DNA from: an uncultured Gammaproteobacteria bacterium
GTDB taxonomy: Bacteria > Patescibacteriota > Patescibacteriia > Magasanikbacterales > JBBTQS01
Direction of reading: 5' to 3'
Assembly: GCA_964627525.1 (NCBI GenBank)
Contig: CAZVIA010000005.1
Coordinates: 6,078-70,077 of the forward strand
DNA: 64,000 nucleotides
The notes below the pieces were generated by a model. It ran no database searches, was not told the DNA's origin, and saw nothing but the letters and a program-made list of their open reading frames with translations. This document shows, piece after piece, positions 4,104-55,892 of the stretch; position 1 is the first letter of the stretch, and every line of letters begins with the position of its first letter. The position numbers were made by a program, and so were the translations under genes.

Positions 4104-5096
4104 ATGAGTACAAAAATGCAAAAAGTTGGAGCTTCTTGTTTTGTTGGTGGGATGCTTACACTCCTTTCACTGATCATCTTGGTTCCTAGCTTGCACTGGA
4201 TCGGCATGATCATTTGTGCAGTTGGTGGAGCCTTGTTTGGTTACATGTTCCATGATTTCAAAGCTGTTCTCAGAGCGATTCCGATTGCTTGGCACTATGC
4301 TGTTACTCAGCTTCACAAAGATGCATTCAGCGTGATCTTGTTTGCGATCTGTGTTGTTCCACACTTCGCATACTTGGGAATCCAATGGCTAGCAAGCAAG
4401 CCTCGACCTCGGTGGATGATTCACTCATTTGCTGGGTGTGTACTAATGTTGCTGTTTTTCTTTTACGACAGTGATTATGAAAGAAGTTATCTGTCTCTTA
4501 CAGGTAGTGCATTCCTAGTTTGGCTTGTTTCATCTATTGTCTGGTGGATATTCCTTGATTTCTTCATTGTGGGTGTCCTCTTGTTTGGGGTGACAGACGA
4601 TATGCTTGGTGATTCAGTTAACAGCTACTGGGAGAGAAAGGCAAATATCGACCTGTCTGATGTGGGGGAATTTACTTTTGAGATCTTTGGTGAAATCAAG
4701 TGGAAACATGCTTTGCAACTTTATGCAGTAGCACTGCTGAACATTGTGTTTGTGCAGTTACACCCAATATGTGCATTCATCTACTTTGTGGGTTGTGCTC
4801 TGTGGATAATCACCAAGCTTGGTTTCAGCTTCGCCTGGAAACTATTTGATCTGATTCACTCAAACGAGCGGATTGTGGTTGCAGTAGACACTCCGCTTGG
4901 TGCATTTCTCACGTACGGTTTGATTCGGGCTTTTGCTGGAGATCCAATCTTGATGCAACCGTGGATTCAACTCTTACTCTGCTTTGCTGGCGGTCTTGCT
5001 TCTGCTGGCTTGGGCATGCTCAACTACAAGCTCATGCAAAACATCCACTGGATCAAGAACTGGATTAGAGACATGGAATTCAACTTCACAGACTAG
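4104..5096 (+). CDS. Hypothetical polytopic membrane protein (higher GC ~46%, strong RBS GGAGG)
   Basis: Multiple hydrophobic segments; AGAGGAGGTG 7 nt upstream of ATG; hairpin ATCTGCC-atcag-GGCAGAT in 5' leader (4050-4069). Confidence 0.55.
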   Translation: MSTKMQKVGASCFVGGMLTLLSLIILVPSLHWIGMIICAVGGALFGYMFHDFKAVLRAIPIAWHYAVTQLHKDAFSVILFAICVVPHFAYLGIQWLASKPRPRWMIHSFAGCVLMLLFFFYDSDYERSYLSLTGSAFLVWLVSSIVWWIFLDFFIVGVLLFGVTDDMLGDSVNSYWERKANIDLSDVGEFTFEIFGEIKWKHALQLYAVALLNIVFVQLHPICAFIYFVGCALWIITKLGFSFAWKLFDLIHSNERIVVAVDTPLGAFLTYGLIRAFAGDPILMQPWIQLLLCFAGGLASAGLGMLNYKLMQNIHWIKNWIRDMEFNFTD

Positions 5097-11628: not shown

Positions 11629-13491
11629 CTAGTAACCAACCCAGAAGCGACCACTACAGCCGCTCGCGTTGTTATCCACCAAGGTGATGGACACCAACTG
11701 GTTGTCTACCCACACGACCCACTTCACTCCGGTCGAGTAACCGTCCGGGGAAGAATCGCACCAGTCCTTGTACGGCGTACCGTACTCAGTCTGATACTTC
11801 ACGTTGAAAAAGAACCATCCTCCATGCGGCAGCTTGAAGCCACCTTCTGGGGAAGTGAATGCTCCGCCATTGCCAGCATCCCAGGTGTACCACTCCTGCC
11901 AATCCCAGTGATAGTCACCAGGCGGCGGGTTGGTGCAACCAGTTGCAGACTTTCCGTCCAAGGTCAGGGTCCCGTTTTCACAGAACCAACCCTGGAGCCC
12001 AGCATGGCTCAAACCGAACGTGATGGGCCACTTGACCCAAACGTCCGCGAAATCGTCAATCTGCGGACCAACCACACATGTACCATCCTGACACACGAAC
12101 CCGTCCGAACAATCGTCGTCCGTGTTGCAGCAGAACGGCTTGGTGCTGAATTGGCAGAAACCAGTCATGACATTGCACATGTCCGTGGTACAGGGGTTGT
12201 TGTCCTCGCACACCTTGGAGGTGTAAAAGCACTGCCCGTTCACGCACGTGTCCACTGTACAAGCGTTGGCATCATTGCAGTTCATCAGATCACAAGGATC
12301 GTCCGAAACGCACTGACCCGTAGCCGAATCACAGGAGTAACCAGCACCGCAAACCTTGGGAGACTGATAGCAAGTACCATTTGCCGAGCACGAACCGATC
12401 GTGCAAGGATCTCCATCGTTGCAATGCGTGGGATTGTAGCACTCGCTGCAAAGCCCTTCCACGCAGTACGGTGTATTACCACCACACAACCCGCAAGAAC
12501 CACCACAACCATCAGTACCACACTCTTCTCCAGAACAGTTAGGGACGCAAGGCAGCGGCGAAGGAACAACACACTCGTTGTCCACGCACACCAACCCAGT
12601 GTCGCAATTGTAATCGTACAAGCAACACCCTAGCACCCCAGCGTAAGTGCACCCATTTACAGGGTTACACGTATCTGATGTACATGGGTTGTCATCATTG
12701 CAGTCAAGCCCACTTTCACCAGGTTGGCAAGCCATACCCTCGCAATGGTCACCCTCAGTGCATAGATCGTTATCAGTACACAAGGTTCCAGGCTCTGCTG
12801 CAACGTAACTGCAGCCATAGCCATTGACACAAGTATCCACAGTACAAACGTTGTTGTCAGCGCACGACTTCGGAGAGCCGCTTACGCACTGATCAGCGCT
12901 GCATGTGTCATTTTCGGTACAAGTATCTCCATCATCACATGCCTGACCATAACGCGGGACATTCTCACACAATCCATCGTCTTTGCAAACGTTGAATGTG
13001 CACTGATTTCCATCGTCACAATCAATGTGAAACTCGCACAGCGGATCCTGGCACGCGCCTTCAACGCAAACCATCTCGCCAACACAAGCACCACAAGAGC
13101 CACCGCAACTGTCTGTACCACATACCTTGTCCAGGCAATTCGGCATACAGCAAGTGTTTTCATAACACACCTCGCCGCCAGTACAGTCTGGGTTACTCTG
13201 GCACACGCCAACGGGTCCATCATCCGGAGTTCCCTCGTCAGGAGTGCCTTCATCTGGGCTACCCACATCCGGGTTTCCAGTGTCCAGCTTCCCAACCTCG
13301 GGTTGTCCAGTGTCCGGAGTTCCAACGTCCGGGGCACTCACGTCTGCTACCGGCTGAGGCATATCCTCTTCCGGCATATTCGGGGTGCACCCAGAGCAGG
13401 TAAAAATCGCACACACAACGGACACAAGCAGAGCTGTCAACAGAACTACCAACGTCCGCATGAACTTACGATCCCTTTGGGTAAAGATCAT
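11629..13491 (-). CDS. Secreted cysteine-rich repeat protein (high GC ~57%); over 15 repeats of C-x-D-x-N-x-C-T-x-D-x-C; Pro/Asp-rich linker; C-terminal beta-rich domain
   Basis: Signal peptide MIFTQRDRKFMRTLVVLLTALLVSVVC; strong RBS AGGGAG 6 nt before ATG; repeats such as CDDGNQCTFNVC, CNDDNPCTSDTC. Confidence 0.7.
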   Translation of the reverse strand: MIFTQRDRKFMRTLVVLLTALLVSVVCAIFTCSGCTPNMPEEDMPQPVADVSAPDVGTPDTGQPEVGKLDTGNPDVGSPDEGTPDEGTPDDGPVGVCQSNPDCTGGEVCYENTCCMPNCLDKVCGTDSCGGSCGACVGEMVCVEGACQDPLCEFHIDCDDGNQCTFNVCKDDGLCENVPRYGQACDDGDTCTENDTCSADQCVSGSPKSCADNNVCTVDTCVNGYGCSYVAAEPGTLCTDNDLCTEGDHCEGMACQPGESGLDCNDDNPCTSDTCNPVNGCTYAGVLGCCLYDYNCDTGLVCVDNECVVPSPLPCVPNCSGEECGTDGCGGSCGLCGGNTPYCVEGLCSECYNPTHCNDGDPCTIGSCSANGTCYQSPKVCGAGYSCDSATGQCVSDDPCDLMNCNDANACTVDTCVNGQCFYTSKVCEDNNPCTTDMCNVMTGFCQFSTKPFCCNTDDDCSDGFVCQDGTCVVGPQIDDFADVWVKWPITFGLSHAGLQGWFCENGTLTLDGKSATGCTNPPPGDYHWDWQEWYTWDAGNGGAFTSPEGGFKLPHGGWFFFNVKYQTEYGTPYKDWCDSSPDGYSTGVKWVVWVDNQLVSITLVDNNASGCSGRFWVGY

Positions 13492-13800
13492 AACAATCTC
13501 CCTGTTGGCCCCCTAGGGCCGGTAAAGCCCGTTAAGGCGTCGAATTCTGGTCTTCTTCAGTGGAACTGTGTTCCAAACGTCCGGCTCAAGAGCGTCACTA
13601 TTGAAGGAGGGCACAATAGCGAACCCGAACCGAACGATTACAACACAGTTCATCAAGCAATTTATGTGTTTTTTTACACAAATCCTGCTTGTTAAAGGAG
13701 AGGTTATACTAGCATAATTACATGTTTTTGTCAAGCTATTTTTGTATAAGCAAGTTTATTTACTTTTTTTTGTAAATTTACAACTTATTTAACCTCAAAA

Positions 13801-13886: not shown

Positions 13887-14990
13887 CTAGAAGTTGATAA
13901 TGCCTCGGAGTTGCACTGGCACTACACCATGCCACTTTCCAAGACTGTCACGAATCCATTCGCCACCAACAGCGACCTTAGCTCCATACCTGACCAGCGA
14001 CTTTTCGTCACCGTTCAAATACGAAACACCAGCAAGAAAACCTGGACCTCGACCATCCCAAGACAACACACCCCCAGTCGAAGCCTGAGTAATTGTGCCC
14101 TCCAAGGTCAACTGAATGGCTGGGTGCACTGTGAAATCCACCCCAAAGGCAGCGCCCCAGAGATGACTGAAGTCTGCATCTTCATCAGACCCAGGCAAAT
14201 CCATTGGCTGACCAATGGCAGTGTTCAGCTCTGCATGCATTCCCAAAACCTCATTGCGGAGATTCCAGTTGTACCGCAGTGCCAACTCACCAACCAAGTG
14301 GGTGGGAAGTTCGTCGCTGTTCAAACCAGGCCTGAACCGCAAACCATATTCCAGAGACAATCCATTCCAACGATGGTTAGCCTTACCAGTAAGTCCGCCA
14401 CCACTATCACGCCCTTCTGGACCATGCACATCGTTCTCCAAACGAGAAATCCGCTGCCCTTGAAAAAGCAACGACTGGTCTTGCGATATATCTCTGGTAT
14501 CTTGGATTCCCTGCGCCTTGCAAGTACGCCAGTCCAGCTCCAAGTACAAGTACTGAAACTCGGAAACCTGCCTTGCTACTTGCGGCTCGTTACAAGAAAA
14601 CCTATGGAAATCTTGGTCAGCGGAAAACCGATCAGTGAAACTCATCTGTGCAGCTGCACACCTACGACGAGCAAGTACATACTGTGGGTTGTCCTGATAC
14701 ATACCAGGATTCACTGACACAGTAGCACGAACCTTCAAACAAGGATGACTTGCAACTACAGCGAAAAGCCGATCGAAAAGCATGGTCGCCTGTGCGCGCG
14801 GTTGCACCATACACTCAAGAGTACCATCAAACCAGTTCTCCATTGGCGCCAAATCCACACCAGAGTATGGACCTATGATTTGTTTCACTGGCTCAATCGG
14901 CAACTTGTCAACGTAAGGCGGTGGCACCTGAGCATTTGCAAGACCCGCCACAAACATGATCATCACGAAACATGCGAGTTGCTTTGACAT
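13887..14990 (-). CDS. Secreted protein with outer-membrane beta-barrel-like features (signal peptide, alternating hydrophobic strands, C-terminal ...GIINF), high GC
   Basis: Start taken at MSKQLACFVMIMFVAGLANAQ (RBS AAGGGGAAAG); C-terminal Phe and beta-strand patterns such as YGAKVAVGGEW. Confidence 0.5.
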   Translation of the reverse strand: MSKQLACFVMIMFVAGLANAQVPPPYVDKLPIEPVKQIIGPYSGVDLAPMENWFDGTLECMVQPRAQATMLFDRLFAVVASHPCLKVRATVSVNPGMYQDNPQYVLARRRCAAAQMSFTDRFSADQDFHRFSCNEPQVARQVSEFQYLYLELDWRTCKAQGIQDTRDISQDQSLLFQGQRISRLENDVHGPEGRDSGGGLTGKANHRWNGLSLEYGLRFRPGLNSDELPTHLVGELALRYNWNLRNEVLGMHAELNTAIGQPMDLPGSDEDADFSHLWGAAFGVDFTVHPAIQLTLEGTITQASTGGVLSWDGRGPGFLAGVSYLNGDEKSLVRYGAKVAVGGEWIRDSLGKWHGVVPVQLRGIINF

Positions 14991-15240
14991 CTTTTCTTTC
15001 CCCTTTGCCCAGCGGGCATTTTTAGCGCCCACTGAGCGCTTTTTCCGAACAATTGCTTATCTGCTAGTTAATCAACCAACAGATTGCAACAACTAAAGCC
15101 ATTAGCATTAATTGTTGCAACCTCTTAGCTAAAATTAGCCCAAAAATCAATCTTTTTTCTGAAGACTTAGATTAGCACAAATAAACTAATCTGTCAAGTA
15201 CTTAATACAATATATTTTTATAATCTAGAAAAACCTAATT

Positions 15241-15324: not shown

Positions 15325-16137
15325 CTAGAAGTACCGACCAGACCGAGCCGAAGTACGCGACGGCGGCGGATTACGACGACCTTGCGGAGGTCGCGGTGCT
15401 GGTCGCACGATCCGACGGCGCATCGTATTGACACGACGCGGCGAGGAACCCATCACGAATCCAGCATCTGCGGCAGGCAACGAACTCGGACGATCTTCAC
15501 GACGACTACGAGTAGCACGAGGCACTGAACGATCCTCACGGCGAGCAAATCGCTGCAACACCTTACGCTCCTGAGGAGCATAGTAAGAAGTCGCGGGAGC
15601 TGCAGCACAAGGCTTCAACCAATTCAACCGATGCACTGCCTCCAAGCAATACTCCATCGCAGCCTCACGCTGGGAATGTTCGTGCTCAACTCGATCCACA
15701 GCGTTCCACTTCTCCTCCAGGACGTGACGCTGTAGAGTTAGGTCACCATTGGTGTTTCCAACAGACCTTTGCAGACCTTCCAACTCCAAGATGTTCAGAG
15801 CGGAAGCCAACTTATACCAGGTCCAGGAACCCTTCTTGGTCTCGAACAACTGGTCCACGGCATCTCGCAAAACGAGCTTGTCCGGAACCTTGTTTCCATT
15901 CAAGTCCAACTTGGGAACCTCATTCACATGATGACGTGCCGTAGCACTGCCACCAAGGGCACATTTCGTTACTGCCGAAATGGCATCACGAACCGGCTGC
16001 ATTCGACGCAACTCCGCGGCAACAGCTCGCTTTTCCTCAGCCAACTTGGCTGCCTGACCCCCCTTTCGGTTATGGGCCAATGCCGTCATCGGAATCGCGA
16101 ACAGAACGATGAGAATGAGTGCGATACTTCGCTTCAT
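15325..16137 (-). CDS. Secreted protein with Arg/Pro-rich disordered C-terminal tail ending ...GRYF (high GC)
   Basis: Start at MKRSIALILIVLFAIPMTALA (RBS GGAGGGAAGG); signal peptide; tail RRRIVRPAPRPPQGRRNPPPSR. Confidence 0.5.
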   Translation of the reverse strand: MKRSIALILIVLFAIPMTALAHNRKGGQAAKLAEEKRAVAAELRRMQPVRDAISAVTKCALGGSATARHHVNEVPKLDLNGNKVPDKLVLRDAVDQLFETKKGSWTWYKLASALNILELEGLQRSVGNTNGDLTLQRHVLEEKWNAVDRVEHEHSQREAAMEYCLEAVHRLNWLKPCAAAPATSYYAPQERKVLQRFARREDRSVPRATRSRREDRPSSLPAADAGFVMGSSPRRVNTMRRRIVRPAPRPPQGRRNPPPSRTSARSGRYF

Positions 16138-20581: not shown

Positions 20582-21058
20582 GTGTTGTTACACAATGAAT
20601 TTATTTGTATGGCAAAGTTGGCAATAAACAAAAAAGCTAGATTTGATTATGAAATTTTAGACACGCTTGAGGCGGGTGTTATTTTGAATGGCCAAGAAGC
20701 TAAATCTGTAAGAGAAGGTGGATTGAGATTGGTTGAGTCTTTTGTAACTTTTAAGGGTGAGGAAGCTTTTATAACAAATGCACACATTAATCGTTACAGC
20801 AAAGCAAGTTCGCATTTGGAACATGACCCAACTCGCCCGCGAAAATTATTGTTGCATAAAAAACAAATTGCTCGGCTGATTGGAAAAAAATCTGTTGAGG
20901 GCTTGACAATTGTGCCTTTGTGTGCTTATATTAAAGGAGGAAAAATTAAAATAGAAATTGGAATTGCGCGCGGTAAAAAGAAACATGACAAGCGCGCGGT
21001 TTTGAAAAAACGCGACACTGATAGAGAAATCAGAAGAGCCCTTAAAAAAAACCTCTAA
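20582..21058 (+). CDS. smpB: SsrA-binding protein SmpB (probable true start at 20609, MAKLAINKK)
   Basis: NKKARFDYEILDTLEAGVILNGQEAKSVREGGLRLVESFV matches the SmpB core; immediately upstream of tmRNA. Confidence 0.85.
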   Translation: MLLHNEFICMAKLAINKKARFDYEILDTLEAGVILNGQEAKSVREGGLRLVESFVTFKGEEAFITNAHINRYSKASSHLEHDPTRPRKLLLHKKQIARLIGKKSVEGLTIVPLCAYIKGGKIKIEIGIARGKKKHDKRAVLKKRDTDREIRRALKKNL

Positions 21059-21140: not shown

Positions 21141-21520
21141 GGGGATGACAGGCATCGATGGGAGGTTCGTGTAATTTTCTTGCGTATCAAGTTTGTATGT
21201 TCTTGTAAAAAATATTCAAACGATTACGTGCAAACGTTTTCAACAAAGTGAAAAACGCTTTCCGCGTTCCTTCACTTTCAATGGTAGCAGCTTAAAAGCA
21301 GCAACCCATCGCGTCCTGACGTCTCTAGGGGCAACGCGGTGTTATAATGAGACTTAGGTTTGCGAGACTTCTCCACTTGTAAACTGAAATAATTGGAGAT
21401 AGACATTACAAGACTTTGATTGTTTGTTGCTTGTAGTGCGACCCCTTCAAACAATCTACATACGTAGATAAGTTTATTGCATACTCACCAGACGCGGGTT
21501 CGAATCCCGCCATCTCCACA
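21141..21520 (+). ncRNA. ssrA: tmRNA (SsrA); predicted tag ANVFNKVKNAFRVPSLSMVAA
   Basis: 5' GGGGATGACAGGCATCGATGGGAGGTTCG and 3' GACGCGGGTTCGAATCCCGCCATCTCCA(CA) match the tmRNA tRNA-like-domain consensus; in-frame tag ends GTA GCA GCT TAA. Confidence 0.85.
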
Positions 21521-21602
21521 TTTTTAAATCACAAACGACCAGAGGTTTTCTTCTGGTCGTTCGTTGGTTGGAATGCTTGGTGTTCACACCTGTTGCCAAG
21601 CG

Positions 21603-25176: not shown

Positions 25177-26130
25177 TTAGTCTATTGGTGTGGAGCTATT
25201 CAAGCCACCCCACATGCCCAACAATTCATTCTTGTGTCTGTAGCGTTTGTTTTGCCACGCTTGAAACTGCCTTTCATCCATAAGTGGTATGTCTTCAAAA
25301 CACAACTCTTCTACTTCCACGTAAAAGGTTTTGTCTAGAATTTTTTCCAAATCCCAGATTGTGTGACACAAGATCCCAAAACCCCAAGTCACATCAAAGA
25401 CACGGACACCACTCATTCCACCACAAAACAAAGTGTGCAAAATCGTGAGCTCTGAACCACTTCGCGGCTGACGCGTGAACTTGAGCCAATGAGCATGAAG
25501 TGAAAACTTCTTGTGATCACTGGCCATGCTTTTTGGTTTTGGCCGACCAGTGTCTGGATGCAAGATCATTGTGGTGCCATGAGTAAACACCAATGGAAAT
25601 CTCTGCTGTACTTTTTGCAAAGATTCCGCACGCTTGTCCCTATTAATAGAAATCATCGTACCTAGTACAGACAAAAATCCACCAATCGGTGAAAACTGAT
25701 TTTTGGTTGCCATCACAGCGCCAACTCGCCTGTTACTTAGGTAATTAGCAAAAGGACTGTTTACGCCACGCATTAGCGCAACTTCATTCAAACTGTGAGC
25801 ATACAATCCATAAGCTGGACCAATCTCACCAGTAGTTGGATGATTTGTTGTAAGAAAAACCCTGTCACCAGGATCAATACTCACCTTTTTCAGGATTTTG
25901 ATCTTTGTGCCCAAAATCTTTATCCAACAATGCCTAGTTGCCACACCAGTCCACAACGTTGGAATTCTGTTAAAAGGATTGAACTGAAACTTTTTGTCCA
26001 AAATCCTTCCTTGCAAAACCCAGTAATACACCATGCCAACTACCCATGGTATAAAACCAAGAAACACGAAGTAAAAACAGAACCAGAACACAGCCTTGCA
26101 AATTCGCCACTTGTTTCTGACTTTCATCAC
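25177..26130 (-). CDS. Membrane protein, possible lysophospholipid acyltransferase (PlsC/LPLAT)-like; low confidence
   Basis: N-terminal TM helices; NHPTTGE (H-x4-acidic) reminiscent of LPLAT block I. Confidence 0.35.
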   Translation of the reverse strand: MMKVRNKWRICKAVFWFCFYFVFLGFIPWVVGMVYYWVLQGRILDKKFQFNPFNRIPTLWTGVATRHCWIKILGTKIKILKKVSIDPGDRVFLTTNHPTTGEIGPAYGLYAHSLNEVALMRGVNSPFANYLSNRRVGAVMATKNQFSPIGGFLSVLGTMISINRDKRAESLQKVQQRFPLVFTHGTTMILHPDTGRPKPKSMASDHKKFSLHAHWLKFTRQPRSGSELTILHTLFCGGMSGVRVFDVTWGFGILCHTIWDLEKILDKTFYVEVEELCFEDIPLMDERQFQAWQNKRYRHKNELLGMWGGLNSSTPID

Positions 26131-26968: not shown

Positions 26969-27244
26969 TCACAATCTCCTTTTATAATCATCTTGTCCTT
27001 TGCGAAGAAATATATCCAAAACTTCTACAATATTTTTCTTAGAAATTATAAAATACAAAACTCTCCAACGTCCAATTCTAATTCTAAATGCCATTTGTTT
27101 TACACCAACAATACGTCGTGTTTGGGGGTGAGAAAAAGGATTTGTAGTTAATTCTTCTAATTTATTTAAAATAATTTGCTGCGTCTTTTTATCTATTTTT
27201 TTAAACTCTTTTTCAAACCTAGCACGAAAAATAATTTCGTACAT
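26969..27244 (-). CDS. RelE/ParE-family toxin
   Basis: ~91 aa; MAFRIRIGRWRVLYFI resembles the RelE/StbE core. Confidence 0.65.
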   Translation of the reverse strand: MYEIIFRARFEKEFKKIDKKTQQIILNKLEELTTNPFSHPQTRRIVGVKQMAFRIRIGRWRVLYFIISKKNIVEVLDIFLRKGQDDYKRRL

Positions 27245-27249
27245 ACTAA

Positions 27250-27483
27250 TTATAAATTACAACGTGAACGCAACTCTTTCATGCTGTATGTTTTTTGTTT
27301 GCGAGTATCTTTATATGCTTCTAAAAATCTTTTGCGATCTTCTTTAACATCTAAAACATACTCACGAAGCGCATTACGCATGAGTTCACTTCTGGTTTGA
27401 TCCATTTGTGCAGAAAGGTCGTCAATTAATTGAGTCATACCTTTTGGCAAAGAAATAGATAAAATTTGAGTTTTTCTTGACAT
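27250..27483 (-). CDS. Ribbon-helix-helix (CopG-like) antitoxin, start at MSRKTQ
   Basis: Small basic N-terminus, 4 nt upstream of the toxin gene; classic TA arrangement. Confidence 0.55.
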   Translation of the reverse strand: MSRKTQILSISLPKGMTQLIDDLSAQMDQTRSELMRNALREYVLDVKEDRKRFLEAYKDTRKQKTYSMKELRSRCNL

Positions 27484-28233: not shown

Positions 28234-28258
28234 TTTTCGAGTGCGGATCGGACGGGAC
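28234..28258 (-). repeat. 25-nt exact duplicate of the tRNA-Asp 3' end plus trailer (ttttcgagtgcggatcggacgggac); att-like scar
   Basis: Identical to 28424-28448, which spans the 3' 16 nt of the tRNA and 9 nt of trailer. Confidence 0.8.
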
Positions 28259-28432
28259 ATTTTTCGGTTGGCTTTGCCAACCTCAAAAAGAATCCTCCTG
28301 CGCCTCGGAAGACATAAAATAAATTTTAGTCTTCGCTCACCTTAGTCAGCTTCCGAACCCCTGGGTTCTCGCCCCAACCAATCCCATATTCAAAAAGAAA
28401 TACCCCACTTGTGGAGTATTTATTTTCGAGTG

Positions 28433-28506
28433 CGGATCGGACGGGACTCGAACCCGCGACCTCCGCCGTGACAGGGCGGCATTCTAACCAGCTGAACTAC
28501 CGATCC
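28433..28506 (-). tRNA. tRNA-Asp (anticodon GTC)
   Basis: rc gives GGATCGGTAGTTCAGCTGGTTAGAATGCCGCCCTGTCACGGCGGAGGTCGCGGGTTCGAGTCCCGTCCGATCCG; cloverleaf with loop CUGUCAC; near-identical to canonical bacterial tRNA-Asp. Confidence 0.85.
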
Positions 28507-28668: not shown

Positions 28669-30039
28669 TCAGGAAGGGCAACCAGTGTCGGGATCAGCGG
28701 GGGCTGAGTCACACGCGTCGCCGCATGCGTCTCCGTCCTCGTTCTCCTGACCATCGTTGGCGTTCAGCGGGCAGTTATCTTCTGCGTCGCCCACACCATC
28801 GTTGTCATCGTCACTGTCGCACTCGTCTCCGTAATTGTCACCGTCCGTGTCCACCTGATCCGGGTTGTCTACACCCGGGCAGTTGTCCATGGGCACGCCG
28901 TCGCCATCCATATCAGGCAGGCACACCCCGGTCGGGAGATCGTCACTCACGTAACATTCCTCATCCACGGCGCAAACCGCGGTGGGATCACAGCTCATTC
29001 CGCACACCGGATCTGAACCACACACGCCGGAACAGTTGGGAACGCACTCTACGCACGCGCCATCCTGACAGGACATGTCGCTGGCACCGAACTCACAAGG
29101 AGTCCCATCGTCTACCACAGAGGCAGCCGTGCACAAGCCAGTGGCCGGATCACAGACATCACCCATGGTACAGACCTCGTTGTCCTCACAGTCAACGGCC
29201 GTGCCAGAGCACGTGCCACCACTGCAGACATCTTCGGTCGTACACAAGTTGTCGTCGACGCAGGACTGACCGTCCTGGGCCGCGGAATCATTCTCACAGC
29301 TACCGTCGGTCTCGTCACACGAGTCCGCGGTGCAGGTATTCGAATCATCGCAATCCACTGCCGTACCGACCTGACAAGCTCCGTCCACACACACGTCACC
29401 GGTGGTGCACAGGTTGCCATCGTCGCAGGCGATATCCAAGTTGGTGCTCACGCAACCAGTCCCAACGACACACTCGTCACTGGTACAGACCTCTCCGTCA
29501 TCGCACGAAGCGTTGTTCGGAGCGTTGGCACAACCAGTCAAAGGATCACAGGAATCCACGGTGCAGGCGAAGGTGTCGTCACAGTCCGTGGCACTGGTAT
29601 CTGTCCCAGCGCACGAGCTGTCCGCACACACGTCAGTGGTGGTACACGCATTGCTGTCATCGCACGAAGCGACGTTAGCCGTGTTCACACACTGATAATT
29701 CGTACACACATCGTCGGTACAGACGTTGGTGTCGTCACACTGCGTATCCATGATACAGGCAATTGCTTCCTCACAACCTTCCGCATCGGAATCCTTGATG
29801 TACGCGCAGTATGCCTGCGTGTCACCGTCCTTCATGTAACAGAAGTATCCGGTCAAAGCGCACGGATCTGCGGGCTCTCCCGCGCAATCCGCGTCAACCG
29901 TACATTCGGTCAAACCACTCACCGTGGTTACGAACTGATCCAATGCCGGAGCATCGGTCATGTTCCCACAACCGTAGATGAGCGGAGAAACGATCAGTAC
30001 GGACAGAACGAACAGAGCGGTCTTTGACTGCTGCATCAT
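28669..30039 (-). CDS. Secreted Cys-rich repeat protein (C-x-D-x-N-x-C-T-x-D-x-C repeats) with C-terminal thrombospondin type-3 Ca-binding repeats; high GC
   Basis: Start at [24 protein letters not shown] (RBS GAGGAG); repeats [26 protein letters not shown]; TSP3: [33 protein letters not shown]. Confidence 0.7.
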
Positions 30040-36459: not shown

Positions 36460-36563
36460 ATTTTTTGTTCAACAAAATTATTTTTGAATACATTTAGTGT
36501 TTCTATATATAAGTTTACAAGAGGATTAAAAAAAACACAATAGCTGTGGAAATAAACACAAAG

Positions 36564-36592
36564 TTGACAAATTTTGCCAAAAATGATATAAA
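36564..36592 (+). promoter_or_regulatory. Consensus sigma-70 promoter TTGACA-N17-TATAAA for the 36630 gene
   Basis: Hexamers at 36564-36569 and 36587-36592; 17-nt spacer counted. Confidence 0.6.
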
Positions 36593-36629
36593 AAGATGTC
36601 GCAAACAACCGCGGCAAAGGGGAGGGACT

Positions 36630-37382
36630 ATGCCTCATATAAGCGAAGACCAAATTGCTAGGTTGCGTGAGTTGGATTCAAAGTTTGAGCATGGGTTGGG
36701 AGATAACTTTGAAGCATGGCTAGATTCCATGGATCAGCTACAAGCTTTGGACATAGACGATCCAAGCCAAACTTCTGAAGCACCAAGTGATATTCGTGAA
36801 AAACAAGCTCAAGTGCTTTGGGATAAGGGTTTTGGTCGTGAGCAAGGTTATGCTGAATTCAAGGGTTACCTTGCAACCATTCCTCCACAACCAGAACGTC
36901 CAACTGATCTCCCAGACTACTTGGACAAGCTAATCCTCGTAGATGCACGAATTGCTCGTACTCAAGATAAGGATGGTGAGTACCAGTTCGGAGGACTTGT
37001 CAAAGTCTGTGAACTGCTTAGAGTCAAATTCACTGGAAACAACTCCATATTTGAACCATTCAATCCAGAACAGGTCAAAAAACAAGACGTGTATTGGATG
37101 TGGTGCCAAGATGGTAAACGTAATCTAGGTAAAACTGTCCAAACCTGCCGTAAAGAGTTCGCTGAAAATGAAATCGGACTTGATGCAATGGAAGGTCTAG
37201 CATTGTTTGCTCAACACAGAAAGATTCCAGAAGATCACTACATGGACCTGCCAAGTTCGGTCCATTGTGGCAATCGCAAGTGCTGCGCGAACCTCGACTT
37301 GTGGGACGACGTTCCGGAGTTGGACTTGGACTGGGATGGCGATGCGGATTCCAGGTTTGGTTCTGCGTCGCGTGGGGAGTAA
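36630..37382 (+). CDS. Hypothetical acidic protein (no recognisable domain); plus-strand gene between ftsZ and ftsA; RBS AAGGGGAGGG
   Basis: Start MPHISEDQ 7 nt after the RBS; GC ~45%; flanked by its own promoter and terminator. Confidence 0.55.
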   Translation: MPHISEDQIARLRELDSKFEHGLGDNFEAWLDSMDQLQALDIDDPSQTSEAPSDIREKQAQVLWDKGFGREQGYAEFKGYLATIPPQPERPTDLPDYLDKLILVDARIARTQDKDGEYQFGGLVKVCELLRVKFTGNNSIFEPFNPEQVKKQDVYWMWCQDGKRNLGKTVQTCRKEFAENEIGLDAMEGLALFAQHRKIPEDHYMDLPSSVHCGNRKCCANLDLWDDVPELDLDWDGDADSRFGSASRGE

Positions 37383-40602: not shown

Positions 40603-41397
40603 TTAGTTAGTAGGCACTTTTAATAACTTACCAGCACCTTTTGGATTATAACCTGCATTTATTTCACTACCATCTTCATATGTATCACCATCTGTATCTG
40701 GATTTAGAGGATCAGTTCCCCAAATCTCCAACTCTTCTTTATCATTTAAACCATCACCATCTGTATCAGGATTATTCCAATCTGTTCCATATTGAATTTC
40801 AACATCATCAGTTATGCCATCAAAATCTGAATCTAGCAAAGCAGAAGGTTCTGGCTCTGGGATAACAATTGTTTCGTCTACTTCTGGAATAATTGTATTG
40901 TCTTTTGGTTCTGGCTCTACAATAGGTGCATCTTCAATTATTAAAGAATCAGTATCATTAATATCTTCTTGTTCCTCTTCCTCATCTTCAATATCTTCTA
41001 TATTTGCTTCAGGAGGAACAATAGTTTCAACAACATCCACATCATCACCAGACATCAAAGAATTAAAAACCCAATATCCACCAGCAATCACTAAAACAGC
41101 AACTACAACTACCAAACCAATCATAAAAATTTTACTTTGTGTCATTGGTGCTTTTAACTCATAAATACTAACACCTTCTCCAGGCATTCCAGTATCTTTT
41201 GGTGTATCTGCTGTAACTGGTTTTAATTTTCCAGTTTCAACAGCTGATGGACCATAATCAACAGATTTATATTTTACTTCTTCTGGAGCTGGCACACCTG
41301 CCGGATCTGGCGCACCTTCTGTTGTTGGTGGCTGATTTGGATCTGGCTGTTGCGTTGGCTGTGGTGACTGCCCTGGTTGTTGTGGATCATCAAACAT
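40603..41397 (-). CDS. Membrane protein with bacterial TSP3 repeats (DSDFDGITDD...NPDTDGDGLNDKEE...NPDTDGDTYEDGSE)
   Basis: Pro/Gln-rich N-terminus, one TM, acidic linker, TSP3_bac-type repeats. Confidence 0.5.
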   Translation of the reverse strand: MFDDPQQPGQSPQPTQQPDPNQPPTTEGAPDPAGVPAPEEVKYKSVDYGPSAVETGKLKPVTADTPKDTGMPGEGVSIYELKAPMTQSKIFMIGLVVVVAVLVIAGGYWVFNSLMSGDDVDVVETIVPPEANIEDIEDEEEEQEDINDTDSLIIEDAPIVEPEPKDNTIIPEVDETIVIPEPEPSALLDSDFDGITDDVEIQYGTDWNNPDTDGDGLNDKEELEIWGTDPLNPDTDGDTYEDGSEINAGYNPKGAGKLLKVPTN

Positions 41398-41423
41398 ATT
41401 TTTATAAAAAACTTTTTGTAAAA

Positions 41424-44400
41424 TTAAATACTACAATTTATTTTGTCAAAACTACAATCTGGCGCACATTGCAAATCTCCTCCTGTAAATCCAAAATCCG
41501 TACACTGCACACCGCTCATATCCTCATTATCACAAGATTCTTGAGCTTGCCTAACTCCATCACCACAACTTCCACCAGTTAATGTAATTTTTTTACAAGT
41601 ATTACTACAATATATGCAACTACTATTATACAGTGCTGAGCAAATATTACCATTGCTCACTCCATTATCACACTCCTCACCTATTTCAGGTTGCAAAGAA
41701 GCATCCCCACAAATCTTTTCTGGAACTGGTGGAGTTGGTGGTGGAGGTGCATATACAACTTCTGCATTAGGATCTGTTTCAGAACATTCCCAATCAGTAC
41801 TTTTTTCTATTTTACAATCAGATGTACAACCCTTAATCAAATATGCTTTATCTTTTCCAGGTGCACACCACTCTATCACATTTATATTTAAAGTTTCTGA
41901 AATTATAGGATCCCCATCACATTCTTCACCACCATTTATCAATCTATCACCACAATATGGTCCAAAAGCCTTACAATCCCAGTTACATGATTCTGACTTA
42001 GACGAAGCATGAACTGTTTGCACTTGTTCCTTTAGACAAGGCTCTGGATCACTTGTTTTTATTCCAGCTGGTAAATCTTCTACTGGCATTACAAAAGAAA
42101 CTACCTTATCATCTCCTGCAGAATATACACCAACAATTACCATTTGTTTCCCATCAACTGTTTTATAATAAATATCAACTACTTTTTCACAATCCACACT
42201 TTCAGACCCAACAGAACAAGTTCTGTTTGTAAATGCACACCTATTACCCCACACATCACATACCTCACCTTGATTTTCTTGTATAATTCCATCACCACAA
42301 GCACCATAGGCACTAATTTCACTTAAGCAATCTAAACTACAATTATTATAAGCCCCATTAAACGAAGCATTATCACAAACCTCACCACCATTTAGAACAC
42401 CATCTCCACAAAAACCAGTTGGCTGACAATTAACTTGTGACTCTGGCAAATATTTACAATCATTAGGACATTGAATTACAAAAGTACCTGGATATTCCAC
42501 GCTAGAAGCATCACTATACACACAACTTCCATAACTTGCTTTCATTCCAATTTCACACTGCTCTCCCATACTTGGATTTAAAATTCCATCACCACAAACA
42601 CCACCAGCACCAATAAATGTACTTGTTATATCTGTGCATGTTTCAACAAGATCAAATTCAGATAAATCAATACCTTTCCAATCATTTGGTCCACTACTTT
42701 CTAATTCAGCTTTTAATTTATATTCTAAACCACCTTCAGTTGATTGATAAGCATAAACATGAGAACGTTTCATGCATTGATATTGTTGTGAACCTGAATT
42801 CCAACAATTTTCAGAATTAGCACCTGATTCAGCACAACCAATCCTAAATTCATTCAAAGGATCTAATGGCATTTCAATTCCCAAAACAGAACCAAGTTGT
42901 GCTTGCCATGAATCCCAAGCACTAACACTCATAGATGGAATATATGTACCTTGTTGCAACAAAGGTGCGTTTGTGTTTTGCATTTTATAAATTTCAACAG
43001 CTTGTTTAATTTTTTGCAAATCACTCAACCTCACCATGTCTCGTTGCATTTGTTTTTTAACAGACAAGCAATCAATATATTCTTCACTACCTGGAATAAT
43101 TTTTTCTTCAGCAGTTGGAGCTTCAGCTAGACACTCTAATTCTGAAGTACATTGAATTTCTGGTTGCAAAATATTGTAAGCTTTTTTAGATTCTTTTATT
43201 GACGCACAAACACCCTGATCCCACTCTTTATTCAAATTAACATTAAATTCTAGATTATCAATTAATTGTTTGTAAATAATTTTTGTTTCAGCAGATGCTG
43301 TGTCATTATGAGAAATAATATAAATATTTGTATACCTTTCATTAAATTTTCCTTTATCATTAGACCCAGGAGTCAATTTATGATTATTGTTTTCAGTTGC
43401 AACATTAACAGCACTAATATAAATTGTGGCACCATCAACAATAGCCTGGTAACCATCAATTTCAATTACTTCGGGATTACCAGGAAATCCTTGCTCATTG
43501 TACCAATCCATTGGAGACAAATGTTTTAGGTTTTTCTGAACTCTTACACCAATAGCATCTCCATTATCTTGGTTTTGCAAGAAAAATGCTTTTAATAAAT
43601 TTGGATCATCAGCAGTTGAAACAAGCTGACCCTTAGTTAGTCCTGGTAACAAATCTTGAGTTCCATTTCCTCTACAATACCAAGTGCTAAAATTGTGTGA
43701 ACTATCAATCAATGGGAACTGACTATTTTGATATTCAGGCCAAGGATTTTCACACATTGTGTTAGTTAATTCAGCAATACCATAATACTCATTTTCAACA
43801 GTTGAAGGATTAAAGAAAGTATCATGCGTAATTGTTGCTGTTGCACGCAAAATTGCACTACCTTTATTTGGTAAAGCACTTACTATAACAACATCACCAT
43901 CATCACTAACATTTTCAATTTGTGCAATAGTTTCATTACTTACTAACCAACTCCACTCCCACTCATAATCATTTGTTTGAATTAGTGGTTGTGCAACACC
44001 ATTAATCACTGTTTCTGCTATTGCAATAAAATTACCAGCACCTTCAATACCTGGCACAAAAAATACATATTTACCAGGTTCAACACTTACACGATCTATA
44101 TCACAAACCTCAAGACCTGTTGTAAACTGCCAACTTTTATCTTGGTGCATGCTAATACTTTTCTCATTTTTAATATCTTTTCCTAAATTAACATAATAAG
44201 TAGTATTTGCTTTCAAAACCTCTGTAGGAATTATAAACAACTTACTTCTATTAACCACCTTACCCTCAATTATTTCTTGTGCATCTGCTAACTGAATTTC
44301 AAAATCAACCACACCTTCACAATCAAATAATGCATAAGCTGGCTCTACATCAAGCATCTCACGCACAAAATTAACAACTGAAAGCCATGCGCGTCTATAC

Positions 44401-47400
44401 CAAGGATCATTTATATTTTTTGTAAATTTTTGAGTTACAGTTCCACCAGCTTTTGTACAAGCTTCTTCTGTATTAGTTTTAATATAAACAGAAACATTAT
44501 CAGTTAAACTATTAGGATAAATTTTTTCATTAAATTCTGCTGTCATCATTGTGTTCCTACACACACCAGATGAAATTGGTTTTTCAGAAATAACATTTGG
44601 ACGACCATAACAACACGCATCATTTCCAACACCCAATGTATTTACATCACCACATTGTGCATCTGAAGTAAATCCACACTGAATAACATATTTTCCTTCA
44701 GCATCAACACTACCTACTGCAAATGGCAAACTAGTTGAAGCTTTTACTTCAGCAGTACGTTTATTATCTACCACATCACCACCTTCTAACCCTGTTATAT
44801 ATTGGATATGATTACTTGCAGACACACCTACATATGCACCAGCTTTTTCACAACTTGAAGCTTCATCAAACTGTGTAGTACCATCACCACAAAATGAACC
44901 ACGTTGTGCAGATGATCCTTCTAACAAACATGTTGAACTACAACCATCTCCAGAAATTATATTTCCATCATCACATGACTCACCTTTTGCAATTTCAACT
45001 TCTCCATTACCACACCAATCTGCATCACCTTGTTGTTTAGGGCCACGACCTTCCATTACGCAAAACTCACTACAAGAATTTTCAAGATTATTTTTTACAA
45101 AACCATCACAATATAAATCTTCACCCGGCTCATTTATTCCATTACCACAAACAGCCACACCAACACATTGTGCATCTAAATCTTCTGATTTTAATTTATT
45201 ACAAGCAGTATAAGACGGTGGTGTACCTGTCCACAGACAACCACTACAATACATTCCATATTCTGGATCAGCATCATCACATTCTTCGCCAATACCCACA
45301 TCCTTATTTCCACATTCAGCAACTGTTGAATTAGAACCCAACCATGTACAAACCTCACTACAACCTTCTCCACCATCACAATCTTCACCACCCAGATCTG
45401 CCATATACTGGACTTCTCCATCACCACAAACTGAATTAGGTGAATCTGCGCCTTCATTTAAACAAATACTACTACAACCATCATCACTTCTAATATTTCC
45501 ATCATCACAATTTTCACCAGGTTCAAGCACTTTATTTCCACAAACACTAGTGCCTTTTGGCTGACTTCCTTTTGCTAAACAAGAATCAGTACAATAAGGA
45601 GATTCTTTAAGTGTTTTTATTTTGGATTCTTTTCCACCAACTAATTGTGCCACACTTGAAGGCAAAACACTCCATGACCAATCATAACTACCTGCATCTA
45701 ATAATTGACCTTCTGTTGGATTACAATTATCTACTGAACCACGAGCTTCCACTTCAAAACCTCTTACAATACCTGGTCCAGACACAACAGTTTCTACAGG
45801 TACTAAGCCAGCTTCGGAAATTTCACAATTTTGTGTATTATTTTTTGATTTAAAAACCCAACTAAAGTAACGTGAATTTTCACCCAAAGGATAACGACTT
45901 TCTTCAGGAATACTTGTAATTGGAATTCCAACACCTGATTTTGAAATCAAACCATTTTCACCTAACAAAACCAAAACTCTGTGATATTTATTAGGAGGCA
46001 AGGTATATCCATTTAAAATTATTTTATTTGTTACCCAATAATTTGGAACTTGCAATGTGTAAGGTAACTTAAGTGACTCTACTTCTTTGGTTAACAAACC
46101 ATTTTCATCTGTGTCAAACAAACATGATTCATTTTCACATTCTAACACCAAAATACTAGCTGCCTTAGCTGGATTAAAAGTACTACTATTTAATCTAATT
46201 GATTGTTTTTTAACTGGCTTATCAAACTCAATTCCAACTTGCGCATTTACACAAACTGCTGAACAGAAAGGATAATAACTAGAAATTTCAGAAGACTTTA
46301 CTTTTACACTTAGCTCACCTTTTCCAACCTTATCCTTCACAGATGCCAAAATTGTTGCAGGAGTATTTGCTGGAGTTTCAGCTTTTGCATCAACAACAAT
46401 TTCTGGATAAGTATCTTCAAATTTTTGACCTTCATACCCATCTAAATCATCATAAAATTCTACGTATTTATAATCTTCATCACTTACTTCCCATGTCCAT
46501 TGATAATAAGATGAATCTAAAACAACACAAGAATTTTCTGGCTTTGCTTCTGCTTTATATTCAACAATTATTTCCTCTCCATTTTCTAATGTTTCACTTA
46601 CCCAACCTAATGAACTTGCAGTATATCTATTTGGATTAACTTCTACTGATTCAACTTTACATAATTCTTTTGACTCACGAGTTTTAAATATATAACAATA
46701 TGATTCATTTCTTGCTACATCACAACTAGTATTAATTTCCATTGGAATACTATTTGTATTTTTCAAACCATTATTCAAACCAACTCTATACCATGTATCT
46801 GGATCAAAACCAATGTGATTCATACCACCTGCTGCACCAACTACTTTTAATATTGCTCCATCTTTAGTATCATCAAAAACATAAGTTTGTACAAGAGATC
46901 CCAACATTGGACTCAATGCTTCACATTCATGATCCACTTCTCCAGGAATCTCTTCACCATCTTCTCCTATTTGATCAACCTTACCTATACATTTTTGAAC
47001 ATAAAAATTTGAATTGCTAAACGTGTTAGCATCCATTTTTTGTGAAAACACAACATTTACAATTGCATTTTTACAAATCTCTTCACCACCAGCATGACCA
47101 ACCCAAGGCGAAGGACTTTCCATACCAGAACCACATTGTTGCATTACTTGAGGAGCTCCATAATCCACAAAAATCAAAGCATCATCAGTTATTTTTGTTT
47201 GTAAATGAGTTGCTGTTACAACTGCTGGCACAACTGAAACACTCCCAGTTTCTAATGCAGCCTCCTTGCTTTCACCAGTAACTTTCATGTGAGATTGACA
47301 ACTATTAGCTCCAACAACTTTTTTAGGAATTACAACTGATTCATTATCACTGCCCCAAGACATTGAGCTTCCAAACCCAAAACAATTATCATACAAAAAG

Positions 47401-50400: not shown

Positions 50401-51239
50401 TTATCCCCAGTTGTAAATGTCACACTACAAGTACTACCAAGTCCACATTTTAATTTTTTACCATCTTTTGATAACACTCCATTTTTTCCATCTTTTACAT
50501 CCACAACATATTGTGTGTTTCTATCAAGACAACCTGTTGCTTCAGCTGTACCACAGTCTTTTGCAGACTTCATTGCCACCATACTGTCATCTATATCATA
50601 ATCAACATCAATTGCTTTACTAGATCCTGTTTTACGCAAAATTATATTTTTTTCAACACTTTCAGAATCAACATCCATTGAAAAATTAATTTTTACGCTT
50701 ACATTATAAATAGGAACATTACCACTTGGTACAATACTTTGAACTGTAAAATTCTTTATTGAACCACCACCGCCAGTCCCACCTGTTCCTCCTCCACCTC
50801 CACCACTACTATCTGAATCACTTGAACTAAATTGAGTACCAGTTGCATCACCTAGTGAGCTTAAAACAAATTGCGTAATTGAAAATGACAAAATAATTAT
50901 CATCAATCCAATCAAACCATTTTTCAAAATCTTTTTAGCTAACAAAATCTTATCTTCATTTCCACCAGCAGTCATCCAAATAAATCCACCATACAAAACA
51001 ATCAAGATCGCCAAAATTCCCAAAAAACCAAGAACCACACGAACTATTTTTGCGATTGTAACTTTTATGTCCTGATCTCCTAATTGAGATGCTTCTTGAA
51101 AATCACCTAAACTTGTATCAATTTGTGCTAAAACTTCTCCAGCTCCAACAAATGCAAAAACAGCAAACACCAAAGCAAACACTATTAAAAAGTTTTTGTA
51201 TTTAGACTTTGATTTAAATTTTGAGAAAAATGATCTCAT
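41424..51239 (-). CDS. Giant (3271 aa) surface protein: VirB2/TrbC-like N-terminal double-TM hairpin, Gly-rich linker, Ig/IPT-TIG-like domains, about ten myxococcal-type Cys-rich repeats (CGDG...E.CDDGN...DGCS..C)
   Basis: N-terminus homologous to the 51242..53053 product; repeats such as [27 protein letters not shown] and [29 protein letters not shown]; IPT-like [11 protein letters not shown]. Confidence 0.75.
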   Translation of the reverse strand: [3271 protein letters not shown]

Positions 51240-51241
51240 AA

Positions 51242-55280: not shown

Positions 55281-55892
55281 TTACAAATTATATTCTGGCT
55301 GATCCATCAACCCAAATTCTTCAATTGGCCAACCTCGTAACCATGCTCGACCAATAATATCATCACGCATAACAGCTCCCATTTTGCGCGAATCCAAACT
55401 TACGTTTCTATTGTCTCCTAAAACAAAATACTCATCCTCATTTAAAGTCACTGTAAGTTCACCAGTTGTATAAACTGCATCCTCTAAATAATCTTCTTCT
55501 GCAACCACAACTCCGTTTTCATTTTCAGAATTATAAACCACAACTTTTCCTGACTGAACTTTTATTTTTTCACCCGGCAAACCAATAATTCTTTTTAAGA
55601 AAAATTCTCGTTTGTCATTTTCTCTCCTAAAAACTATTACTTCACCACGTTTTGGCTCTGAAAACCTATAAGTGATCTCATCAATGATTAAATACTGCTT
55701 TTCATAATAATTCGGCTCCATGCTTGCACCTTTTACATAAAAAGGTTTAAACAAAAAATATCGCACCATTCCAATTGTTATAATAGTAAGTAACGCGATT
55801 TTTGCGAACTCTATAAAAAAAACTTTTGTTGCATATCCGCGAGATGATTTGTCTTGCTCGCTTTGATCATATAGACCTGGATCTTCTAACAT
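55281..55892 (-). CDS. lepB: Signal peptidase I
   Basis: GASMEPNY (Ser box), VLGDNRNVSLDSR (box E). Confidence 0.85.
   Translation of the reverse strand: MLEDPGLYDQSEQDKSSRGYATKVFFIEFAKIALLTIITIGMVRYFLFKPFYVKGASMEPNYYEKQYLIIDEITYRFSEPKRGEVIVFRRENDKREFFLKRIIGLPGEKIKVQSGKVVVYNSENENGVVVAEEDYLEDAVYTTGELTVTLNEDEYFVLGDNRNVSLDSRKMGAVMRDDIIGRAWLRGWPIEEFGLMDQPEYNL

Follow-up and report, generated by a model that had tools for sequence, protein, structure and literature searches.

The Dicty_CTDC family of Pfam (PF00526), which includes the Dictyostelium extracellular matrix proteins EcmA/ST430 and EcmB/ST310, is made up of secreted or extracellular proteins with tandem units of about 24 residues, each holding four cysteines and the core CxDxNxCTxDxC. 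No structure or function had been established for this repeat as of PMC8078820, and our searches of the literature turned up no work on the function of CTDC proteins in bacteria. Here we describe two such proteins, p1 and p2, encoded in a 64,000-nucleotide stretch of contig CAZVIA010000005.1 (the window, whose positions are used below). The open reading frame (ORF) for p1, at 11629..13491 (-), specifies 620 residues, 75 of them cysteine (12%), and its product is a predicted exported protein with a CTDC stalk and a distinct C-terminal domain; that for p2 (P0121), at 28669..30039 (-), specifies a lipoprotein-type CTDC protein of 456 residues and 57 cysteines that ends in thrombospondin type-3 (TSP3) repeats. 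They differ from the Dictyostelium proteins in coming from a bacterium, in being of lipoprotein type or anchored at the N-terminus, and in having alternating sub-types of unit, extra CxPNC...CGGSCGxC modules and different C-terminal heads. On balance, and with modest confidence, we read both as exported stalks, stapled by disulfides and tethered to the membrane, with a binding head at the far end, in a bacterium of the candidate phyla radiation (CPR) that acquired them from a GC-richer donor.

Several other systems can be set beside p1 and p2. CTDC lipoproteins from metagenome-assembled genomes of Myxococcota and 'Deltaproteobacteria' (such as P0001, P0008 and P0124) are 30-46% identical to them across the repeats and resemble them in having a lipobox, an acidic linker, a cysteine content of about 12%, occasional CGxDGCGGSCGxC modules and a variable C-terminal domain carried on a stalk. 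They differ in length (usually 700-1080 residues, the median number of units being about 17), in their C-termini (LTD, FGE-sulfatase, fibrinogen_C or DUF1566) and in that the GC content of their genes equals that of the flanks; moreover, the p1 head was carried by none of the 240 homologues first retrieved. The CTDC lipoproteins of Candidatus Uhrbacteria (P0185 and its 535-residue neighbour, contig L025) have in common with p1 and p2 a CPR host, a lipoprotein-type N-terminus and tandem CTDC units; however, their GC content at third codon positions (GC3) of 0.51-0.55 falls within a local range of 0.29-0.55, and they have neither TSP3 repeats nor a p1-type head. The C-terminus of p2 resembles thrombospondin and COMP (3fby, 1yo8) in its motif DxDxDGxxDxxDNCPxxxNxDQ, in its paired cysteines and in the presence of the Ca2+-binding residues of those structures, but p2 has only about two to three repeats and lacks both EGF domains and the lectin-like globe at the C-terminus, and the PDB matches cover the T3 region only. 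Finally, the heavy-chain arm of the Gal/GalNAc lectin of Entamoeba histolytica (PDB 9gjb/9gjc) belongs to a surface adhesin and is an elongated chain of small beta-hairpin modules, stapled by intra- and inter-module disulfides, the latter making it rigid (PMC12948311). In that lectin it is the light chain, and not the arm, that binds the sugar, and we would liken the p1 stalk to the arm as an analogy of shape rather than as a homologue.

CTDC units and the architecture of p1 and p2

The initial annotation of this DNA described two secreted proteins of more than 15 tandem modules of about 12 residues each. Both ORFs lie on the minus strand at the coordinates that it gave, and the peptides that it quoted are found in them (CDDGNQCTFNVC at residue 158 and CNDDNPCTSDTC at residue 264 of p1, and a 13-letter peptide at residue 126 of p2). 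The tandem cysteine repeats are real; the size and number of the modules had to be revised, as each protein has eight units of about 24-29 residues with four cysteines, and each quoted 12-mer covers the part of a unit that holds its first three cysteines. The units follow the pattern C-x5-C-[TS]-x3-4-C-x3-7-C and are in register, starting at residues 158, 185, 210, 238, 264, 357, 405 and 428 of p1 and at residues 101, 126, 153, 179, 205, 230, 260 and 284 of p2, whereas 2000 residue shuffles gave a mean of 0.15 units and a maximum of 3. Two sub-types alternate, with the consensus sequences CDDxNPCTxDxCDPxxGC and CDDGxxCTxxDxCxxGxC across 77-124 homologues, and when the repeats of these homologues were aligned, a check that had been proposed for the cysteine spacing, the Cys, Asp and Thr columns were conserved at 90% or more.

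When p1 was compared with Dicty_CTDC (gathering cut-off 27 bits) it scored 46.1 bits over six stretches, and its orthologue P0244 scored 83 bits; p2 scored 25.1 bits, just under the cut-off, and its orthologue P0122 scored 18.8 bits. Nearly all of the phmmer matches listed for p2 (E down to 1e-83) are PF00526 proteins, and the rest are PF02412 (TSP_3) proteins aligned to the C-terminus. The suggested likeness to eukaryotic extracellular matrix modules is borne out by a eukaryote-named matrix repeat family. A likeness to myxobacterial cysteine-rich repeats had also been suggested, and this holds in that the homologues are mostly Myxococcota or 'Deltaproteobacteria' proteins from metagenome-assembled genomes, but not for the model TIGR02232 (cut-off 20.8 bits), which had no match on p1 or p2 at E <= 1. 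Nothing real was found for either protein in an NCBIfam search, and a PDB sequence search with the CTDC region gave no match. The two proteins are only 34-37% identical to each other, and their cysteine regions contain no DNA-level tandem repeat, which rules out recent amplification of the repeat or its collapse during assembly; the absence of DNA similarity elsewhere in the window likewise rules out a target or template repeat of a diversity-generating retroelement and a recent p1/p2 paralogy. The CTDC repeats are old. On sequence grounds we assign p1, and by its cysteine spacing and phmmer matches p2, to the Dicty_CTDC repeat proteins, with TSP3 added in p2 and a rare head domain added in p1; they are further members of a known, uncharacterised family, whose repeats are already catalogued in Pfam.

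Grouped with p1 and p2 in the initial annotation was a giant adhesin, the cysteine-rich ORF at 41424..51239. This ORF does match TIGR02232 ('myxo_disulf_rpt'/DUF4215; 54.6 bits), which is likewise an acidic, cysteine-rich extracellular repeat frequent in Myxococcota, but it is a different family from CTDC, no unit of which occurs in the giant ORF. The codon usage of this ORF is native (GC3 0.16, with TGT making up 94% of its cysteine codons), so that its history differs from that of p1 and p2.

An AlphaFold2 model of p1 from the single sequence was uninformative (predicted local distance difference test score, pLDDT, 39), and the informative run, to which the scores below refer, used an alignment of 77 sequences. 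From its N-terminus (all parts on the minus strand), p1 begins with a hydrophobic signal or anchor that ends ...FTCSGC and is modelled as a helix over residues 5-28 (residues 1-35, 13387..13491), followed by an acidic Pro/Asp/Gly linker of seven tandem (D/E)xGxP pentapeptides (residues 36-96, 13204..13386; pLDDT <50), within which lies the sole DNA tandem repeat of the gene (13270..13326). There follow a small Cys hairpin with the first CxPNCxxxxCGxDxCGGSCGxC module (residues 97-157, 13021..13203; low model confidence), five CTDC units in the order A-B-A-B-A (residues 158-289, 12625..13020; pLDDT 89-96), a second Cys hairpin and CxPNC...CGGSCGxC module (residues 290-350, 12442..12624), the three remaining CTDC units interspersed with two Cys hairpins (residues 351-476, 12064..12441; pLDDT about 73-84) and, last, a Trp-rich, clade-restricted C-terminal head domain of 144 residues with four conserved cysteines (residues 477-620, 11632..12063). 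A beta-hairpin is modelled in each of the five central CTDC units. The small hairpins have the pattern C-x5-C-xxG-xx-C-x4-C. The CxPNC module, of which p1 has two copies and p2 one degenerate copy, is also present in 8 of 233 homologues, is matched by no Pfam model and was left unmodelled by AlphaFold2. These modules, the hairpins, the pentapeptide linker and the C-terminal domain of p1 were absent from the initial annotation.

The head of p1 is modelled as a beta-rich fold of nine beta-strands (pLDDT 55-87), probably a beta-sandwich. Only four true clusters with this domain were found among 1.84 billion representatives, and those that could be placed all come from related CPR contigs. No sequence match to the head was found in Pfam or, including by profile, in the PDB, and a fold search gave no significant match, with weak C2, ChiA-N (chitinase A N-domain) and AA10 lytic polysaccharide monooxygenase-like similarities at E >= 0.3. 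For the p1 model, the best match in the PDB by Foldseek, and the sole one below E 1e-3, was the Entamoeba Gal/GalNAc lectin heavy chain (9gjb_H, E 8.7e-5). Among orthologues the head is 43-53% identical, compared with 33-42% over full-length p1.

In p2 the eight CTDC units (residues 101-309, 29113..29739) are followed by a Cys knot with a degenerate CxPNC...CG.D..CG module (residues 310-372, 28924..29112) and by 84 residues of TSP3 repeats (residues 373-456, 28672..28923), all on the minus strand. TSP3 repeats had been reported at this end of the protein, and the excised C-terminus indeed scored 46.7 bits against Pfam TSP_3 (PF02412; cut-off 25) over three stretches, although TSP_3 was not reported when p2 was scanned at full length. 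The same region matched COMP (3fby, E 1.1e-24) and TSP-2 (1yo8, E 1.7e-23) in a phmmer search of the PDB, and contains the motif DxDxDGxxDxxDNCP; its conserved Asp/Asn ligand pattern suggests that it would bind Ca2+. Since p2 ends directly after the repeats, 9 residues past the last, it has the TSP3 repeat without being a thrombospondin-family protein. Identity between p2 and P0122 rises from 42% in the N-region to 51% in the stalk, 63% in the Cys knot and 75% in the TSP3 repeats, with every cysteine kept, and therefore the distal end is the most constrained part of the protein.

The proposal that both proteins are secreted agrees with their Kyte-Doolittle profiles, which show a single hydrophobic segment in each, located N-terminally. 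A lipobox was sought by regular expression ([LIVMFWSTAG]2-[LIVMFYSTAGCQ]-[AGS]-C after an uncharged h-region), and the pattern was matched by p2 (a 10-letter stretch and then C), by both orthologues, P0122 and P0244, and by the Myxococcota-type homologue P0001. The N-terminus of p1 may, from its sequence, be a signal anchor or a substrate of signal peptidase I. Of signal peptidase I, Lgt and LspA, the first alone was seen in the window, at 55281..55892. Past the putative lipid cysteine the number of cysteines is even in p2 (56) and in P0122 (58), as it is in p1 (72, counted after C35). From these features we infer export and disulfide bonding.

Foreign composition at two conserved sites in a CPR genome

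The FtsZ protein encoded in the window is 60-69% identical to proteins of Patescibacteria, Candidatus Magasanikbacteria and Candidatus Uhrbacteria, and the giant proteins nearby have the T4SS-pilin-like N-terminus; we therefore assign the window to a CPR bacterium, in keeping with the tiny genome that the initial annotation had supposed. The window has a GC content of about 33%, with two GC-rich islands, one at 11.6-16.2 kb holding p1 and the adjacent ORFs of 381 and 270 residues, and one at 28.6-30.1 kb holding p2. Overall GC is 0.536 for p1 and 0.58 for p2, and GC3 is 0.57 (0.569) for p1, 0.65 for p2, 0.49 for the 381-residue ORF and 0.54 for the 270-residue ORF, compared with 0.15-0.30 for native genes. 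Amino-acid content alone can be ruled out as the cause: with native codons a GC content of 0.41-0.43 would be expected for p1 and p2, and 0.41-0.44 for all four genes, as against the observed 0.54-0.58 and 0.51-0.58, respectively. AAG makes up 93-100% of lysine codons in the foreign genes and 18-20% in native ones, TGC makes up 46-59% of cysteine codons as opposed to 6-14%, and GAG, CAG and GAC are raised too. Translational selection for NNC codons is ruled out by the rise in AAG, GAG and CAG, and an expression-linked codon bias by the genes for L20, L35 and IF3, which have native composition (GC3 0.18-0.28). Because codons ending in C and in G are both raised while these three genes are native, the shift is a general one in GC content and not a product of translational selection. 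We conclude that p1, p2 and the two island neighbours are compositionally foreign.

The GC excess is uniform along the genes, the clade-specific head included. The GC content of homologues equals that of their flanks, being 0.56-0.75 in loci from GTDB (Myxococcota), while the two best matches have 0.50 and 0.59. No trace was found of a transfer of the whole three-gene cassette together from those Myxococcota loci that were sampled.

The same gene order has been assembled independently in the ENA, JGI and Logan collections, in at least four data sets. The p1 island sits between a Wzz-like gene and Wzy_C, with GT4 and GHL15 genes next, and the 212-residue protein that flanks it has weak Wzz and GNVR matches. 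Two contigs, L022 and L024, are collinear with this locus on both sides and hold a p1 orthologue together with fast-evolving neighbours that give a weak OmpA-like signal; in all, three other CPR contigs have a p1 orthologue directly upstream of Wzy_C, within a glycan locus collinear with this one, and the p1 cassette is kept in at least four diverged genomes. The p2 orthologue P0122 (contig L002) is 52-55% identical to p2, in a genome whose FtsZ, PK, LexA and NrdR are 71-76% identical to those encoded here, and p2 and P0122 alike are placed between lexA, on the upstream side, and tRNA-Asp, a short way downstream.

The orthologues have stayed GC-rich. Their four-fold sites are saturated, with a third-base identity of 0.27 (0.28 expected) between p2 and P0122 and of 0.20 (0.24 expected) between p1 and P0244. 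Yet GC3 is 0.73 for P0122 against 0.26-0.40 for its flanks, 0.87-0.90 for the island of contig L020 against 0.45-0.53, and 0.60-0.85 for that of L024 against 0.33-0.42. This lasting excess is a compositional puzzle, and may tell how these genes are maintained or renewed.

If our reading of their origin is right, p1 and p2 represent two imports of a Myxococcota-type disulfide-repeat stalk into the surface proteins of a CPR bacterium, each with a conserved distal head and kept at a fixed site in several related genomes, and they would exemplify the passage of genes from GC-rich bacteria of the diderm type to a monoderm one with a minimal genome. What is notable about them is their origin (horizontal, at conserved insertion sites and with a lasting GC excess); as a protein family they are ordinary.

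A possible role for the stalks and competing explanations

Attachment to other cells is thought to be the way of life of CPR bacteria, yet few of the proteins that serve it are known. In the arrangement that we favour, the N-terminal signal would keep each protein tethered to the cell membrane on its outer side, by the lipobox in the case of p2 and by a hydrophobic anchor in that of p1, and in p1 only an acidic, flexible linker would come next. The eight four-cysteine CTDC beta-hairpin units, together with the other Cys knots, would then form a thin, disulfide-stapled rod, acting as a rigid spacer that pushes the head past the cell wall. At the far end would stand the most conserved part, the Trp-rich, beta-rich domain of p1 or the Cys knot and calcium-binding TSP3 repeats of p2, and this head would bind a ligand on a partner cell or an extracellular polymer. 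The genes would not have been born in this lineage, given the composition of a GC-richer donor and a family centred on Myxococcota-like bacteria, and would have been inserted at exchange-prone sites, namely the surface-glycan locus and the neighbourhood of tRNA-Asp. Rod-like rigidity and any adhesion role are what we infer from this design. Attachment to a host or partner, which the initial annotation had thought plausible, is consistent with the predicted architecture, and p1 and p2 are concrete candidates for cell-surface or partner-contact functions.

A number of observations weigh against the stalk reading. No close donor allele was found in 5.8 billion proteins, the best identity outside the CPR reaching 36-46% along roughly half of the protein, and repeat proteins align poorly. 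Orthologues that are saturated and yet GC-rich are not what one old transfer with neutral amelioration afterwards would predict. The p1 sequence has no strict lipobox by the regular expression used, P0244 would have an odd number of cysteines (45), and no disulfide-forming enzyme (Dsb or VKOR), which it had been suggested to look for, was seen in the window. The Entamoeba match of the p1 model is weak (TM-score about 0.07, 15% identity). Lastly, p1 is fixed beside Wzy, Wzz and GT4 genes, which would suit a function involving the glycan of the cell itself no less than partner attachment.

The last of these points leads to the strongest competing explanation, which we regard as appreciably less probable than the reading above, but still a serious candidate: p1, and perhaps p2, would be a scaffold of the envelope matrix that binds the cell's own surface polysaccharide, the product of the adjacent Wzz-like, Wzy, GT4 and GHL15 genes, and organises or anchors that layer. 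In Dictyostelium the CTDC proteins EcmA and EcmB sit in a cellulose-based matrix, which would provide a parallel for such a scaffold. The invariable position of p1 orthologues directly upstream of Wzy_C, the Wzz and GNVR similarities of the flanking 212-residue protein and the aromatic-rich head of p1, with the chitinase A N-domain and AA10-type sandwiches among its weak fold matches, can all be accommodated by this idea. However, those fold matches are not significant, no carbohydrate-binding family was matched in Pfam or by profile in the PDB, p2 lies outside any glycan locus, and the composition of the island marks it as an insert and not as an original member of the locus.

A further suggestion, which we consider unlikely, concerns the manner of acquisition. 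Both sites, the surface-glycan locus and the tRNA neighbourhood with its attachment site (att)-like 25-nucleotide direct repeat, are plausible hot spots of exchange, and related CPR lineages could keep replacing the p1 cassette and p2 at these same two sites with alleles from the GC-rich, Myxococcota-like bacteria on which they live. Recurrent replacement would explain how saturated orthologues stay at least 20 GC points above every host genome, and, if it were true, the replaced genes would, by their composition and phylogeny, be a lead to this CPR clade's hosts.

The strongly atypical codon usage, and the divergence of the two island neighbours past BLAST recognition between genomes, might also be taken to mean that the genes are recently landed, functionless passengers that drift neutrally towards decay. 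This is largely refuted by the pattern of conservation and we give it very little credence: the ORFs are intact, every cysteine is kept between p2 and P0122 at 55% identity despite saturated synonymous sites, the distal modules are conserved at the level of housekeeping proteins (75%), and the cassette has been retained in at least four diverged genomes. We hold it to be just as improbable that the repeats belong to a metal-binding, redox-buffering or toxin-type protein and not to a structural stalk. A content of 12% cysteine and the many Asp residues able to bind cations would suit such a protein; the cysteine spacing, however, is that of an extracellular matrix repeat family, export signals are present, the number of mature cysteines is even, the model gives beta-hairpins and not metal clusters, and no toxin or defence family was matched in Pfam or NCBIfam (PADLOC and PHROGs were not searched). 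That GC-rich Myxococcota fragments were misjoined into a low-GC CPR contig, by chimeric assembly or contamination, is hardly credible in spite of the sharp GC steps at the gene borders, given the identical arrangement in the independent ENA, JGI and Logan assemblies, the AT-rich, native-type spacers between the GC-rich genes and the collinear CPR genes that bound the orthologues on both sides in other genomes.

Neighbouring genes and other features of the window

The exact p1 and p2 proteins are both present in public assemblies, p1 on contigs of several of them; no identical match for p1 appeared in the first homology search because a 110-residue fragment represents its 90% cluster. For p2 an alternative upstream ATG at 30126 would give 485 residues, and gene callers choose 30039. 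Long antisense ORFs arise opposite the GC-rich CTDC genes, as at 11824..12633 (+) in the window, 14453..15262 in contig L006 and 7773..9128 in L024. The JGI annotation of the same contig calls a 269-residue antisense ORF and a 93-residue fragment in place of p1, and in L024 a 451-residue antisense ORF is called over the p1-like gene, which also contains a scaffold gap. Upstream of p1 there is a promoter-like site at 13706..13734 (-) (TTGACA-17-TG-TAGTAT, 10/12 matches, in an AT-rich gap with a local GC of 0.27), the number of such sites in the region being not above chance.

The 381-residue secreted ORF that adjoins p1 lies at 13887..15032 (-). It shows collinear weak similarity (E 0.007) to its counterpart in L020, which in turn is similar to that of L024 (E 1e-5) and has a weak OmpA match (20.6 bits); a profile of the neighbour gave no match in the PDB. 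By sequence the 381-residue protein thus appears to be a distant relative of the OmpA-like protein in the orthologous cassettes. Its terminus, ...IINF, has a terminal Phe like that of outer-membrane proteins, and the L020 and L024 counterparts end in HF and SF. An OmpA-like signal and a terminal Phe are odd for a CPR bacterium, which is presumed to be without an outer membrane. The first gene of the three-gene island, a GC-rich secreted ORF of 270 residues at 15325..16137 (-), has an Arg/Pro-rich tail and a counterpart of like size and position in L020, and no family match was found for it.

At the other site, tRNA-Asp(GTC) at 28432..28506 (-) lies 162 bp downstream of the Asp-rich p2, an arrangement shared with the related genome. 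The 3' end of the tRNA and the following 8 nt form a perfect 25-nt direct repeat (28423..28447 and 28234..28258), which flanks a 164-nt segment with about 84% DNA identity to L002 despite the synonymous saturation of neighbouring genes. This segment has a fold z-score of -2.96 and no Rfam family match; it may represent either a scar of the att type or a small RNA. Past the tRNA-Asp region, at about 26969..27483 (-), the annotation of the identical contig L001 places a RHH_1/ParE toxin-antitoxin pair and an HD_3 protein.

Four further ORFs have an intermediate GC3 of 0.39-0.48, at 4104..5096 (+), 25177..26130 (-), 36546..37382 (+) and 56929..57747 (-), and may be older or other foreign genes; the first two of them have no Pfam hit. 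A tmRNA gene at 21141..21521 (+) (Rfam, 113.7 bits) adjoins smpB at 20582..21058, in a neighbourhood conserved in L022 and L024. A surface gene cluster of native composition extends over 40603..53053 (-). In it the giant ORF, of 3271 residues, has a type IV secretion system (T4SS)-pilin-like N-terminus, TIG, Big_5 and Big_7 domains, and its TIGR02232 repeats at residues ~1880-2130; a 603-residue protein again has a T4SS-pilin-like N-terminus, and a 264-residue protein has bacterial TSP3 repeats with partial CglD/MtsD-like matches. Towards the end of the window lie an HNH endonuclease with homing-endonuclease repeats at 58027..58677 (-) and, at 60614..63127 (-), an 837-residue fused N6-methylase/specificity/HSDR_N protein of type IIG/type I-like restriction-modification.

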